In this document: positions 2,332 through 43,413 of the stretch, piece after piece
How the letters are laid out: the number at the start of each line of letters is the position of its first letter
Numbering within the stretch: position 1 is the first letter of the stretch
From: a virus
Length of the DNA stretch: 43,413 nucleotides
Strand: one strand, 5' to 3'
Virus record (IMG/VR): IMGVR_UViG_3300009078_000001
The notes under the pieces: model-generated
What the model was told of the DNA's origin: nothing
The model's input: only the letters and a program-made list of their open reading frames with translations
Databases searched by the model: none
Translations under genes and position numbers: made by a program

Positions 2332-3461
2332 CAGGCCTCCCTCGCATGTCTTGATTCATAGACGAACTGTCCCGTTGCATCGGCATAGGAGCGCCCCAGG
2401 GCGACTTTTTCTATCTGCCTTACACAGTGGCGGGCATTGTTGTACTCGGTGTGGAGGGGAATATATATAGTTGATCCGGAAGTGGTAAATTCTAAAGTGT
2501 CGCCGTAATAATAGGTGCTTTCGTAGATAGCGAACGCCCTGAAATAATATAATCTGCCCATCGCAAGGCCTGAAATGTTAAAACTTCTTACATAATCCGT
2601 GACAGACCCGGAGGTGGCGACAGATACAGTAGATTTCCAGTTCTCGTCAGACCAGTATTCGATGCCAACCGTTAAATCTATTCCTGTATATTGCCCGCTT
2701 AATATGGCGGTTTTATTGCCTACTGAAGTGCAGGGAAGCGTTGTTACTGAAATAAGCGACGGGTAATAGGAACTATAATCCCATGTAAAGATACCAAAGG
2801 TGTCTAATATAAATGGTATATTCTCTGTGGACGCAACCTGGCAATCTATATGTCCCGAAGGACAATTCTGCCAAGACGTAACCCAGGTATAATTGTTATC
2901 AACAAATGCCAGTAAATAATAATGCCTGTGGCGGTCAGTGGCATTGGCGACATTATTAATGTAGGCAGACCATGACCCCCCATCTGAGAATTCAGTCCAG
3001 CCTATTAATTTTTTAGTTAATTGCCCTTCGTCAATACATGATCGCCCTGTCGAGCGACAGTTCGTATGGCCTAGCGCACAGGTAGCAGCATTTGACCTTG
3101 CGCCAAAGCTGGTCGCTAGATCAGGTCGCTCCATCCATTGCGCATAATAAGTATGTAGATGAGTTCCATTTTCCCAGTTATATGTTTCGGTGTCTAATCC
3201 TAATGCAGCACATTCAACAGTAGAGAGCCACAATGTGCCTACTGTCGTGCTGTTCCAATAAGCCTCCAGTTCGTCATTCCATGTTATAGCGGCCAGCCTT
3301 TGGCCGCTTTTAACCCCGTTGTCTACATTAACCTGGCAAAGTGTATGACCTGAAGGACAGGTTTTAATAGAGTACGAATGGATACTGGCAGCCCCGGCCT
3401 GCTCCTGAAAGGTATATGAATGCGTATGGTTGGAATAACTAGGATGGCTTGTTTCTGGCAT
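2331..3461 (-). CDS. Tail-tip protein A2: three HxHxY...CxxGHxxC repeats, an FN3-like domain, and a conserved C-terminal motif shared with 3461..4171
   Basis: 376-aa ORF. It has HTHSY..CPSGHTLC, HLHTY..CALGHTNC and HRHYY..CPSGHIDC. The segment ...ISGLAMGRLYYFRAFAIYESTYYYGDTLEFTT looks fibronectin-III-like. The C-terminus is EYNNARHCVRQIEKVALGRSYADATGQFVYESRHAREA. Confidence 0.8.
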   Translation of the reverse strand: MPETSHPSYSNHTHSYTFQEQAGAASIHSYSIKTCPSGHTLCQVNVDNGVKSGQRLAAITWNDELEAYWNSTTVGTLWLSTVECAALGLDTETYNWENGTHLHTYYAQWMERPDLATSFGARSNAATCALGHTNCRSTGRSCIDEGQLTKKLIGWTEFSDGGSWSAYINNVANATDRHRHYYLLAFVDNNYTWVTSWQNCPSGHIDCQVASTENIPFILDTFGIFTWDYSSYYPSLISVTTLPCTSVGNKTAILSGQYTGIDLTVGIEYWSDENWKSTVSVATSGSVTDYVRSFNISGLAMGRLYYFRAFAIYESTYYYGDTLEFTTSGSTIYIPLHTEYNNARHCVRQIEKVALGRSYADATGQFVYESRHAREA

Positions 3462-19894: not shown

Positions 19895-20020
19895 ATGAAG
19901 ATTTATATACATAAATGCCTCCGATGTAATCACAAATGGGCGAGTAAAAACCACCACCCTTTACGTTGCGCTAAGTGCAAAACGCCCTATTGGAACAAGG
20001 AACGCAAATGCCAGAAGTAG
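19895..20020 (+). CDS. Small zinc-ribbon protein (41 aa, not in track)
   Basis: My translation is MKIYIHKCLRCNHKWASKNHHPLRCAKCKTPYWNKERKCQK*. It is a clear paralogue of the 47-aa ORF at 37085..37228. Confidence 0.6.
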   Translation: MKIYIHKCLRCNHKWASKNHHPLRCAKCKTPYWNKERKCQK

Positions 20021-20823
20021 GTGAAATTAAATACGGTCACGAAATCGGTATCAAAAACGGCGATAAGTATATTTACCGTAAATGTATCTTATGCGGTAAA
20101 CCTGCATATAGAACTGTACGCGCCATTAATGCTGGAAAATCTGTTAAATGTAGATCATGCCTTAAACGTGAATGGGGATTACCAATAAAAAAACAAACCC
20201 TTGCCCGATATAAACAAATATTCGGTGATAGTGTAAAATGTGGCGACGAAATAGGAATGAGCCGTAACAATTTTTACTTCAACCATATTTGTATTGATTG
20301 TGGCAAATTACACAAAGTAAGAATATTATTTTGCGAACCCATTAGCCAGAGATGCAAACAATGTGGCATTAAGGCAAGTGTGGCAACCCGTAAAACTGAA
20401 GAGTGGCAAGCTAACCATCTTGGCGCCAATAGTAATGGGTGGAAAGGTGGTAGATGGCGAATCAAAGAAGGTTATATAAGGATCACTCTCTCTAAAGATG
20501 ACCCGCTTTATTCAATGTGTAATAAAGGTGGTAATGTATTTGAACATCAAGTTATAATAGCGCGACATCTTAATCGTTGCCTAACAAAAGATGAGATCGT
20601 TCACCATAAAAACGGAGTTAAAGATGATAACCGCTTAGAAAATCTAGAACTAACTGCAAACGGCAAACATTCTAAAGATCATAGCAAAGGTTATCAAGAT
20701 GGCTACACTAAAGGTTATGAACAAGGATTAAAAGAAGCACTTAAATCCAACGGATGCTTACCTCTCTCGCAGGTAATTCTACAAAGGCAAGCATTAGGGC
20801 ATCAGTCTTATCGGGAGACTTAA
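20008..20823 (+). mobile_element. Free-standing HNH (HNH_3-type) homing endonuclease gene
   Basis: FEHQVIIARHLNRCLTKDEIVHHKNGVKDDNRLENLELTANGKHSKDH, plus two N-terminal CxxC...CxxC modules. It is on the opposite strand to all neighbours. I prefer the ATG at 20008 (MPEVGEIKYG). Confidence 0.8.
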
Positions 20824-21995
20824 GTCCTCTCTTCTTAAGCTCTTCCTTGGATTCTATGAGTAATCTTCCGTGTGAATCGTACTTATACTTTATGGAACTT
20901 GTCTGCGCGATCAACTCCAAATCGTCAGGAATTGAAATCTCGCCTTTTTGGAACCTGTCCGCTAATTGCCAGTACGCCTCAGCCCGGATGTTCGCGTACT
21001 TCAACTTATCAGACGCCGCTTCCCCGACATTCACACCGTTGTCTCTAAACTTTTGTTCTTTGAGCCTATCGACTACCCCGGCGCCTATTCCAATCACATC
21101 TATGTTTACGGCGTCCGGGCTGAAGCGCTGCATTAAATTGATAATCTTACCCGTAGTGGTCATTAAATCCGCCTTGGCCCAGGTTTCCAGCCAGATTGTC
21201 TTCTGGCCCTCCCTTACACAAGCTACGGATGAATCGTCCCCAAATCTCGCAATGTCCACCCCCATGACCTTTGTTTTGTCTTCATCCTTTATTTCCCGTT
21301 CGATGGCATCCTTGATATCTTTGTATTTAAATAGATAATTCCCGGCCTCAAGCGCATCCCAGTCTCCCTCCAAAAGTTGTCGCACCAGCTCTTCCGGGTA
21401 GAGTTTCCTTAAATTACTCTCATAGTCCACCGGCAAGTAAGGGTTATCTTTGGGTAGTGCCTGGATAAAGACATGGTCCTCCAGTTTCTGCTCGATGAAT
21501 CTATGCTTGACCCACCCCGGCGCCGGGTTCGCCGTTAAAAGCCCCTTATAGCGTATCTTGGGGACGCCGAGCCTTAACCTTGAAGCTAAAAGAAAGAAAT
21601 GTGCTTCCGAGGTCTCCTCGGCCTGGTCAATGGCGAACCAGCCCAGATTCATACTTTTAAGCCTATCAATGGCGTTCTGGTCGTCGCCGAGGCCCCCGTA
21701 GTAAATGATGGACCCGTTTATCAACCTGAAATAAGACTCCGTGCCATGATGTTGCTTCACGAGTCCGTCCGGGAGGAACGTCTCAAGGGTCGCTAAAGTC
21801 GTGCGGCGGAAACTTGACAGTTCGTGTCTACACAGATATCCCACATTCCCGGGGCAGTCTAAACTCAGTTGGATAATCTCATTACATAATGCGGCGGATT
21901 TCCCGCCACCTACAGCGCCCTAATCAGCCGCCATAAAGTACATATCTTTCAGGGGCGCTATGAAATAAAATCTGTCTGGGCGTGGGTTTATACAT
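20741..21995 (-). CDS. terL: Terminase large subunit, interrupted at the Walker A by a 7-nt stop-containing gap (21920..21926)
   Basis: 21995..21927 encodes MYKPTPRQILFHSAPERYVLYGG, followed by TGA. From 21919, in another frame, comes GAVGGGKSAALCNEIIQLSLDCPGNV, continuous with track ORF 20741..21844, which carries a nuclease-domain-like C-terminus. Confidence 0.8.
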
Positions 21996-22048
21996 TTCCC
22001 TGAGGTCTATGACTTTAGGCAGCTGGCATCACCTCCTTTTTGCGAGTT

Positions 22049-22309
22049 TCAATATCCACGGAACCTCCTCACCGCCTGCTCCGTCCGTTCCTTTATGTTA
22101 TCCGGCAGCTTTAAAACCTTTCTTTGATGCGTGACATAATCTATGTTGTACTTAAAACTAGGTGGTAAAAGGTCGATGTCCGCCTGGGTGACTGGTTTAG
22201 CTTCTTTCGTTTTTACGGAGGGTGTTACTTTCGTTACGGGCTTTACGCCCTTTTTCTTGGCCCTGAAGCGCCTGACGCGCTCCCTGACGGCTTCCTTGGA
22301 TTCTTTCAT
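22049..22309 (-). CDS. Hypothetical basic protein (possible packaging accessory or small terminase)
   Basis: 86-aa ORF directly upstream of terL. No diagnostic motif. Confidence 0.6.
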   Translation of the reverse strand: MKESKEAVRERVRRFRAKKKGVKPVTKVTPSVKTKEAKPVTQADIDLLPPSFKYNIDYVTHQRKVLKLPDNIKERTEQAVRRFRGY

Positions 22310-42818: not shown

Positions 42819-43413
42819 CTATGCTGCGGCAATTAATCCGTGTGCTATCATGGCATCACGTAAAGCATCAATAACACCATCAGTTGTAGCGTCCCCTGAG
42901 TTGATTACATCATCACAGCGGGCATCCACTACCCTTGCGCCCACCACTTGAGTCCCTGCCACACTGAGAACCTTACCTGTGGGCAAATCCATACCAGTCC
43001 CGACTATGCTTAATACTTCTGCGGCTGCCGCACCTGCTATCTGTAGGTTAAAGTTTATCTCCACATCTTCAGAGCCATCCGTAGCATCGGTCAAAACAAA
43101 GTCTAAGGATGCACGTTCTTCTACTTGGCTTGCAGCGTTCCCTAAATAGACAGGAATCCCTAATCCAAAGTTTGCTGCTTCGTTATTAGTTCCTGCACCT
43201 GCCCGAAGATAGAACATATCGGTTACAGAATTAGTTGCTACTCCTGTATCATCACGGCCTATTCGTAAGTAAGGGTCTGCTGCACCTATAACTGCTGCTA
43301 CTGATACGATAGTCACGCCATTGTCCCTTGCGGTTATAAGAAAGAGGCTGTTGTCTACATTTAATGCAGAAAAGGAATTACCATTACCTATATAAAAGTT
43401 ACTAAACTGGGCT
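42819..43413 (-). CDS. Tail fibre / receptor-binding protein, C-terminal part (continuation of 1..1334 across the junction)
   Basis: Same frame as the ORF that runs off base 1. The C-terminus is ...GARVVDARCDDVINSGDATTDGVIDALRDAMIAHGLIAAA*. Confidence 0.8.
   Translation of the reverse strand, partial: AQFSNFYIGNGNSFSALNVDNSLFLITARDNGVTIVSVAAVIGAADPYLRIGRDDTGVATNSVTDMFYLRAGAGTNNEAANFGLGIPVYLGNAASQVEERASLDFVLTDATDGSEDVEINFNLQIAGAAAAEVLSIVGTGMDLPTGKVLSVAGTQVVGARVVDARCDDVINSGDATTDGVIDALRDAMIAHGLIAAA
43291..43413. repeat. End overlap (second copy of bases 1-123)
   Basis: Identical to 1..123. Confidence 0.97.

Follow-up and report, generated by a model that had tools for sequence, protein, structure and literature searches.

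Stop-initiated gaps at the Walker A motif of phage terminase large subunit genes: candidate natural stop-hops

The IMG/VR virus record IMGVR_UViG_3300009078_000001, a stretch of 43,413 nucleotides (nt) that we refer to at its full length as the window, carries on its minus strand a terL gene, which encodes the large subunit of the phage terminase. The reading frame of this gene is interrupted at the Walker A motif by the 10 nt TGATTAGGGC (21926-21917), which begin with an in-frame TGA. The most probable reading of the sequence data, to which we assign a probability of roughly 0.75, is that these 10 nt form a non-coding gap in an otherwise functional terL and are crossed by a short stop-triggered translational bypass (a "stop-hop"). 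Stop-initiated gaps occur at the same site in about 35 independent metagenomic contigs, comprising at least 13 distinct family-and-gap combinations in at least seven TerL lineages, and together they look like a natural, widespread case of translational bypassing.

The first part of the gene (N-part; 21927..21995, minus strand) runs from ATG 21995-21993, the first canonical start, to TAT 21935-33, GGC 21932-30 and GGC 21929-27, and is followed by TGA 21926-24. It translates as MYKPTPRQILFHSAPERYVLYGG*, and is conserved in frame in the gap-bearing relatives. GGC 21929-27 (Gly), the last sense codon before the in-frame TGA, is the putative take-off codon. In the +1 frame the sequence past the TGA position reads T GAT TAG, with the TAG at 21922-20, and continues with GGC 21919-17, the putative landing triplet, GCT 21916-14 and GTA GGT GGC GGG AAA TCC. 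This frame encodes the P-loop, GAVGGGKSAALCNEII..., and remains open to a stop at 20741; the C-part (20741..21916, minus strand) thus has 391 uninterrupted codons counted from the GCT (Ala) of AVGGGKS.... The third frame contains TAG at 21912-10, so that each of the three frames is stopped within 17 nt. No in-frame ATG, GTG or TTG is found between the TAG at 21922-20 and the P-loop, and the first such codon, GTG 21844, lies past the P-loop. Given stops in all frames and no start before the P-loop, only a jump past 21920 would give a TerL with a Walker A motif.

The product joined across the gap is recognizable as a terminase large subunit (Pfam Terminase_3, E 2.9e-11), and in an alignment with Sf6 gp2 the N-part corresponds to strand beta-1 and the P-loop, HRYKVAKGGRGSGKS. 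The N-part presumably holds the adenine-binding Q motif (YKPTPRQ) as well as strand beta-1 leading into the P-loop. The terL gene call in the window (P0010) begins 87 codons 3' of the first ATG. The window itself has an exact 123-bp terminal direct repeat (1-123 and 43291-43413), which identifies it as a circularly closed assembly and a complete phage genome of about 43.3 kb, with a G+C content of 46%. Its 59 genes end in TGA (25), TAA (22) or TAG (12), its open reading frames (ORFs) are long and unfragmented under genetic code 11, and it contains neither tRNA genes nor a suppressor tRNA.

An earlier reading by a model that saw the DNA alone (the sequence-only reading) had reported the TGA after GGC GGC, a P-loop one base out of frame behind a TAG, the lack of a start codon between the TAG and the P-loop, and a closed genome, all of which agree with our re-reading. 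It had also placed here a 7-nt gap with stops in both relevant frames and GGC on either side; the stops and the bracketing codons stand, whereas the DNA that is extra relative to uninterrupted relatives amounts to exactly 10 nt, the 7 nt plus the landing GGC.

A protein search with the joined TerL returned thousands of homologues. Full-length relatives at 72–86% identity (P0001, P0003, P0004, P0009 and P0011) read ...ERYVLYGGAVGGGKSA..., i.e. YGGAVGGGKS, and the same pattern is present in 41 uninterrupted loci from IMG/VR and Joint Genome Institute (JGI) metagenomes. These fetched relatives serve as the reference for the window's family; for other TerL families the reference is the pattern [YF]GGAxGGGK[ST], their own uninterrupted relatives not having been fetched.

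In several close relatives the called TerL protein was truncated at its N terminus, and the contigs concerned carry a short stop-initiated insert at this site. The gaps measure 5, 6, 8 or 10 nt, and every one lies within three adjacent codons of the Walker A region. Among members of the window's family, L014 has an 8-nt gap, TGATTGGC, between TAT GGC GGC and GCT ATG GGT; L015 and L019 have 5-nt gaps (GGC GGC [TGAGC] GCC GTG and GGC GGC [TGAGC] GCT GTC, respectively); and in L016 the same 5 nt occur one codon earlier (TAT GGT [TGAGC] GGG GCG GTA). Scanning JGI metagenomes by protein similarity alone recovered an in-frame 6-nt class, Y G G [TGA GGN] A V/Y G G G K S/T, represented by L023/L063, L037, L038, L057, L059/L067 and L066, with L374 (grouped with L023/L063) and L376 as further samples; L158 and L159, from scans of IMG/VR, also have 6-nt gaps. 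In the protein-similarity sample, 8 of the 37 loci that cover the region contain a gap, down to a TerL identity of 48%, and no frame-disrupting inserts were seen elsewhere in terL. It is this retrieval that provides unbiased support for the recurrence; the scans with DNA patterns demanded a stop after the take-off codon by design.

The IMG/VR scans also added L078, a member of the window's family in which the 5 nt TGACC stand one codon further on, after F G G A(GCC) and before I R G G K T. They extend the gaps to other TerL types as well. The L162 family, which is Pfam-confirmed as TerL and unrelated to the family of the window, has a 10-nt gap, TGAATAGGGC, between ...LVLFGG and AAGGGKS, and this gap is identical to that of the window at 9 of 10 positions. 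It is unchanged in six metagenomes, including one lineage whose flanking DNA is only 78% identical. The L180, L222, L223 and L256 families, also Pfam-confirmed and distinct from the window's, share an 8-nt gap of the form TGAYTGGY. Control scans with other stop codons identified 5-nt TAG-initiated gaps in two further Pfam-confirmed TerL types, the L356 family (TAGGA) and L370 (TAGGC), and the pattern scan for TAA-initiated gaps gave no credible case; TGA is much the commoner of the two initiating stops. Gap sequences are alike across unrelated TerL families despite unrelated flanks, as in TGA(T/A)TAGGGC for the 10-nt and TGAYTGGY for the 8-nt forms. The gap therefore recurs at the codon where the sequence-only reading had suggested looking for it, with 5, 6 or 8 nt in the window's family and 5, 8 or 10 nt in others. 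That reading had also taken uninterrupted relatives as a sign of an artefact or private mutation; many relatives are indeed uninterrupted, yet many others, from different samples and assemblers, are gapped, and the uninterrupted state does not carry that meaning here.

A single rule accounts for every variant: leaving the last codon ahead of the stop and re-pairing at the triplet immediately 5' of the resume codon yields the uninterrupted Walker A pattern, which supports, at the level of sequence, the Gly-to-Gly hop proposed earlier for the window. The landing triplet equals the take-off codon at two or three positions in 13 of 13 family-and-gap combinations; for a random triplet the chance of such a match is 10/64 each, and the searches did not select for it. 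The pairs are GGC to GGC in the window, L014, L162, L256 and L370; GGC to GGT in L180, L222 and L223; GGY to GGA or GGT in the 6-nt class and L356; GGC or GGT to AGC in the 5-nt class; and GCC to ACC in L078. In the 5-nt gaps the two bases past the stop co-vary with the take-off codon (GGC TGA GC versus GCC TGA CC), and in the TAG-initiated 5-nt gaps the landing triplet is GGC or GGA. Gap length also varies by 2 nt within the window's family (TGATTGGC in L014 versus 10 nt in the window), a freedom that a hop would tolerate and a fixed frameshift cannot.

Codon choice at the site differs between gap-bearing and uninterrupted loci. The take-off Gly is GGY in 10/10 gap-bearing and 7/33 uninterrupted loci (p = 1e-5), the preceding Gly shows the same counts (10/10 versus 7/33, p = 1e-5), and the Leu codon is CTC in nine of ten versus two of 33 (p = 9e-7). 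These choices strengthen a predicted hairpin that spans the gap. In the window (21905..21941, minus strand) the take-off flank (..TATGGCG) would pair with the resume flank (CGCTGTA..), leaving the stop and the gap in the loop, at -12.4 kcal/mol, and analogous hairpins are predicted in nearly all gap-bearing loci. For the 6-nt gaps, real loci average -12.5 kcal/mol, compared with -4.9 kcal/mol for uninterrupted loci into which the gap was inserted in silico (p = 2e-4). It is plausible, on these folding predictions, that the hairpin stimulates the hop. A long-range pairing of CATAGCGCCC with GGGCGCTGT in the window was not treated as a signal, as relatives do not have it.

The gap-bearing genes are otherwise uninterrupted, with C-parts of 391–677 residues, and gapped loci are interspersed with uninterrupted ones throughout the TerL tree. 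Between gap-bearing lineages synonymous divergence (dS) is saturated, while the 26 codons before the gap have a nonsynonymous divergence (dN) of 0.1–0.4 and a dN/dS ratio (omega) of 0.03–0.37; this purifying selection indicates that the small N-part is translated and needed. Recurrence, the otherwise intact genes, selection on the N-part and the conservation of a 10-nt gap across 22% nucleotide divergence all contradict an artefact, a private mutation or decay, and on these comparisons we judge the gap to be none of the three.

According to the model we favor, a ribosome with peptidyl-tRNA-Gly on GGC 21929-27 would meet the slow-to-decode UGA in its A site, the anticodon would release, and the mRNA would slip by 10 nt, probably with the help of a hairpin in which the flanks pair and the gap is looped out. 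The same tRNA would then re-pair at GGC 21919-17 and decoding would restart at GCT, giving ...ERYVLYGG-AVGGGKS..., with a Walker A motif identical to that of the uninterrupted relatives. Ribosomes that do not hop would release a peptide of roughly 23–32 residues. The predicted tryptic junction peptide of the hop is YVLYGGAVGGGK.

The alternative that the window's terL is simply broken, by an assembly or consensus error, by a private 10-nt insertion or as part of a decaying or defective phage that makes no full-length TerL, draws on the finding that the 10-nt form was encountered a single time in the window's TerL family, on a CTG at the position of the relatives' ATG start, and on error-like in-frame stops in the terL genes of two low-coverage relatives (TAG for Glu at nt 1548 in L043; TGA for Lys at nt 1033 in L054). 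The latter are probably errors rather than recoding, and they are substitutions at scattered positions, unlike the inserts at the Walker A site. A broken gene is also at odds with gaps at one site in otherwise intact genes from many samples and assemblers, with the constraint on the N-part, with the stable conservation of a nearly identical 10-nt gap in another family, and with the closed genome and long intact ORFs of the window, and we consider it unlikely. Conventional recoding, whether by a +1, -1 or +2 frameshift, by stop-codon readthrough or by reassignment of TGA or TAG, would suit some of the relatives: the 6-nt class is in frame, and UGA readthrough there would give YGG-X-G-AVGGGKS with the GxxxxGKS motif kept, while the 5- and 8-nt classes have no stop in the -1 frame, which would give YGG-LS-A.. 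or YGG-LIG-A... In the window, the stretch of the P-loop frame before the TAG is open and includes ATG codons (MYFMAAD*GAVGGGKS), so that initiation there followed by TAG readthrough can be envisaged; its product would miss the conserved N-part, which is under selection. A prfB-like +1 frameshift is ruled out in the window by the TAG at 21922-20, and the third frame is closed by the TAG at 21912-10. Stop reassignment or suppression (codes 4 and 25, TAG recoding) was rejected on the basis of stop usage, which makes TGA and TAG ordinary stops, and of the lack of tRNA genes, and would not restore the frame in any case. Moreover, no single frameshift rule covers 5, 6, 8 and 10 nt whereas one hop rule does, the landing triplet co-varies with the take-off codon, and no locus in the protein-similarity retrieval has extra residues at the Walker A site without a stop codon. 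We consider conventional recoding very unlikely.

Two further alternatives place the solution outside a continuous act of translation. TerL could be made as two assembling polypeptides, a peptide of about 23–32 residues and a C-part produced by re-initiation after the stop. Gene callers do use a start just past the gap in L014 (ATG), L015 (GTG) and L016 (TTG), and a Shine-Dalgarno-like GAGGAG occurs within 6-nt gaps. Such starts, however, would delete part of Walker A (MGGGKS...), none (ATG, GTG or TTG) exists between gap and P-loop in the window, in L019 or in any 6-nt locus, and a single ATPase fold would be divided between its strand beta-1 and its P-loop; we give this arrangement very little credence. 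Equally slight is the prospect that the gap is removed from the nucleic acid, either by site-specific RNA processing or editing or through minority genomes with a precise deletion. The gaps are bordered by short direct repeats (GGC...GGC, GC...GC), at which slippage could on rare occasions cause deletions, and gapped and uninterrupted relatives share environments. The repeats are just 2–3 nt long, though, we know of no bacterial system that excises 5–10 nt from mRNA, and an in-frame stop right after the take-off codon together with a tRNA-specific bias in that codon fits a translational event.

Several observations weigh against a stop-hop in addition to the singleton status of the window's gap. 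The loci are known from sequence and all contigs are metagenomic; since no cultured relative exceeds 45% identity, viability is deduced from recurrence and selection. The CTG that replaces the relatives' ATG could mean weak expression of the window's copy, or a defect in it. Stop-hops without stimulation have been described as low-level in E. coli (bioRxiv 10.1101/2024.12.09.627546), and efficiency here may likewise be low. The hairpin is partly a by-product of a quasi-palindromic coding sequence (TAY GGN GGN GCN GTN), and the codon biases could stem from shared descent or co-conversion instead. A GGG that overlaps the landing GGC by two bases, one base upstream, is a possible competitor for landing, and in the 6-nt class the putative landing triplet is mostly GGA, a wobble mismatch for a tRNA that reads GGC/GGU. 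For that class the sequence is also compatible with the stop-codon readthrough described above, and in the 5- and 8-nt classes the -1 shift, which adds 2–3 residues, meets no stop.

The gaps of the window's family are associated with a sequence upstream of terL. All gap-bearing loci of this family, and none of the uninterrupted loci, have the leader (A/G)GGAGGTGATGCC(N)(A)ATGCC. In L015, L019, L059/L067, L066 and L078 the leader forms the 3' end of an HNH endonuclease gene (PF01844; KGQRLSPxTEFK repeats at the N terminus of the protein), and this gene overlaps the start of terL. Other loci retain less of it: the last 17 HNH codons (..LCKSCHRGGDAKCHRL*) in L023/L374 and just 11–20 nt of the HNH 3' end in the window, L014, L016, L037 and L038; in the window, the sequence homologous to the HNH 3' end of L015 begins some 15 nt before terL starts. 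In the close uninterrupted relatives L017 and L020, a gene ending in ...RRFRGY* abuts terL with neither HNH nor leader, and the HNH cassette of the other relatives is inserted exactly between this ORF and terL. HNH proteins are 71–72% identical between loci whose TerLs are 49–51% identical, which suggests that the HNH gene moves independently of TerL. In the L223/L251 and L256 families, the gene immediately 5' of gapped terL encodes an HNH protein of another type. A strong Shine-Dalgarno sequence occurs in many genes of the window and was dropped as a special feature in itself, which leaves as informative the extended form of the leader and the homology that it shows to the 3' end of the HNH gene.

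These associations point to a possible origin of the gap as the immunity scar of a mobile HNH homing-endonuclease cassette aimed at the conserved Walker A DNA, in which case the HNH gene itself would have disappeared from the window, leaving behind its 3' remnant and the gap. We see the chances for and against this origin as about balanced. A related HNH gene precedes an uninterrupted terL in L079, and HNH genes are common beside terminase genes for packaging reasons; both points count against the link.

The closest precedent known to us from the literature is the terL of phage phiHau3, prophage StrepC.1 and an S. catenulae prophage, for which a UUA-triggered bypass of +10 (or +7) nt has been proposed (Smith et al. 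2013; PMC10732093); the Hau3 junction peptide was detected by mass spectrometry in E. coli (PMC10732093). The window resembles this system in the gene affected, in a frame-disrupting insert of 10 or 7 nt whose flanks are contiguous in relatives, in a Gly take-off codon, in a slow-to-decode codon in the A site, and in predicted RNA pairing that brings the landing site near the take-off site. The first Hau3 gap, after KGWG and before KDPLL, can be read as lying at a P-loop-like position, and a stop codon placed in the Hau3 +1 frame leaves recoding in place. The trigger differs: in Hau3 it is the rare Leu codon UUA, tied to the scarcity of its tRNA in Streptomyces and proposed as a lysis/lysogeny sensor, whereas here it would be a stop, TGA or sometimes TAG. 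The TerL family and hosts differ as well, the contigs related to the window belonging to uncultivated phages that, to judge by the contig names, appear to stem largely from groundwater or the subsurface. Candidate bypasses of the Hau3 type were found in just 3 of 100 actinophage ter genes and have no reported HNH link, unlike the gaps described here, which are 5–10 nt long, occur in many lineages and have an apparent HNH link.

The sequence-only reading had invoked T4 gene 60 and left the Hau3 terminase unnamed; the logic of that comparison applies, while homology does not. The 50-nt gap of gene 60 protects against an upstream HNH homing endonuclease, MobA, and some genomes keep the gap after loss of the endonuclease (Huang 1988; Bonocora 2011; bioRxiv 10.1101/2022.08.31.505936). 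Both systems have matched Gly take-off and landing codons, a stop right after take-off, a stem-loop at take-off (predicted here), a gap about 30–45 codons into the ORF and a patchy distribution among close relatives. The relatives L015, L019, L059, L066 and L078 have an analogous arrangement, with an HNH gene directly upstream and an HNH phylogeny decoupled from that of TerL, and loci such as the window, with its short leader remnant, may have kept the gap after loss of the endonuclease. The differences are in gap length (5–10 versus 50 nt), in the gene (terL versus a topoisomerase large-subunit gene) and in sequence, as no homology was found and the window's gap bears no resemblance to the cassette; no dedicated N-terminal extension was identified here.

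Synthetic stop-hops of +5 and +6 have been obtained in E. coli (Weiss, Dunn, Atkins & Gesteland 1987; reviewed in PMC5009743), and these distances equal those of two of the classes described here. In them, as proposed here, peptidyl-tRNA re-pairs with a matching triplet a few nt past the stop, and in the +6 case nine nucleotides specify one amino acid. Those constructs are artificial and of low efficiency, whereas the gaps in terL are natural, conserved and located in an essential gene. A 2016 review knew of no natural in-frame stop-hop (PMC5009743). The byps of Magnusiomyces capitatus mitochondria, short non-coding inserts that are corrected in translation (Lang 2014; Nosek 2015; cited in PMC5009743), are comparable in that many inserts in essential genes have matching take-off and landing codons and a mobile-element-like spread. 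They differ in being 27–55 nt long, in depending on mitochondrial translation and in occupying many positions in many genes with no single protein motif. The bacterial gene prfB, encoding RF2, the one release factor that reads UGA, uses an in-frame UGA in the A site as a pause for re-pairing of the P-site tRNA, as the window's terL would. There the tRNA shifts by 1 nt (+1) to a codon that overlaps the first, and a Shine-Dalgarno sequence lies 3 nt upstream. Our literature search found no description of stop-initiated gaps in the Walker A region of terL, and earlier work is possible, most subscription journals being outside its coverage.

No near-identical match to the DNA of the terL region was found among 50,697 phage records, tblastn with three of the TerL families brought up no cultured relative with an identity above 45%, and a scan of genome contigs returned a single distant match (27% identity) that offered no host clue. 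A number of candidates were set aside. The truncated calls P0007, P0008 and P0020 are not gapped genes; they are uninterrupted ones with mis-called or missing starts. L377 begins past Walker A and is uninformative. L278 and L279, retrieved with a DNA pattern of leader plus gap, are false matches, and L188, L243, L304, L369 and L372, from stop-gap patterns, are chance matches in G+C-rich ORFs and were dropped on context. A search of IMG/VR based on the HNH gene gave mostly unrelated HNH genes, of which only those of L078 and L079 adjoin terL.

The 5' end of the window's terL has an unusual start region. Within the leader, GGAGGTGATGCC..., lies a perfect Shine-Dalgarno match, GGAGGTGAT (22028..22036, minus strand), 9 nt before a CTG (22020..22022, minus strand) that, by alignment of leaders, occupies the position of the ATG in relatives (MPQTIDLR...). 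The relatives' start is eight codons upstream of ATG 21995. CTG 22022-20 may act as a weak start; alternatively, initiation may occur at ATG 21995. L017, the close uninterrupted relative, has no ATG, GTG or TTG upstream of the P-loop (2890-3010), and its terL frame is +1 to the end of the upstream gene (...GGT TAC TAA ACT...), which hints at a non-canonical start or at coupling with the upstream ORF.

The neighborhood of terL includes further features. An 86-aa ORF (22049-22309, minus strand) that ends in ...RRFRGY* is the conserved upstream neighbor of terL in this phage group and has no Pfam or PHROG match. On the opposite strand, between terL and the portal gene, the window encodes a 282-aa HNH_3 endonuclease (19975-20823, plus strand) whose ORF overlaps the 3' end of terL (20741-20823). 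The portal gene directly follows terL in L014, L015 and L016, and L017 has a T5orf172/MUG113 gene at this spot. The HNH_3 ORF looks like an inserted free-standing homing-endonuclease gene. In L180 (IMGVR_UViG_3300025087_000622), the C-part contains an intein (Pfam Intein_splicing, E 1e-12) besides the 8-nt gap, so that one gene bears two different selfish-element footprints.

Natural bypassing is known from very few systems, namely T4 gene 60 and its relatives, Magnusiomyces mitochondria and the Hau3 terminase candidate. If the gaps described here are hopped, they would provide dozens of natural variants at one site, with distances of 5, 6, 8 or 10 nt, TGA or TAG as the stop and various take-off and landing pairs; such a set would amount to a ready-made series of mutants for studying the efficiency of short hops. 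The gaps also have a practical consequence: gene callers truncate or split gapped terL, and marker-gene surveys and viral completeness tools may mis-score such phages. We hold it to be an even bet that hops of 5–10 nt are a widespread natural decoding event, that the Walker A gaps in several TerL families originate and are disseminated as immunity scars of HNH homing endonucleases directed at this highly conserved DNA, and that the two together would form a second, independent and much commoner endonuclease-plus-bypass system besides T4 mobA/gene 60, one that includes the first natural in-frame stop-hops. The HNH link, if confirmed, would generalize the idea from T4 that bypass elements protect against homing endonucleases that attack conserved coding DNA, and should be of interest to those who study recoding and the mobile elements of phages.

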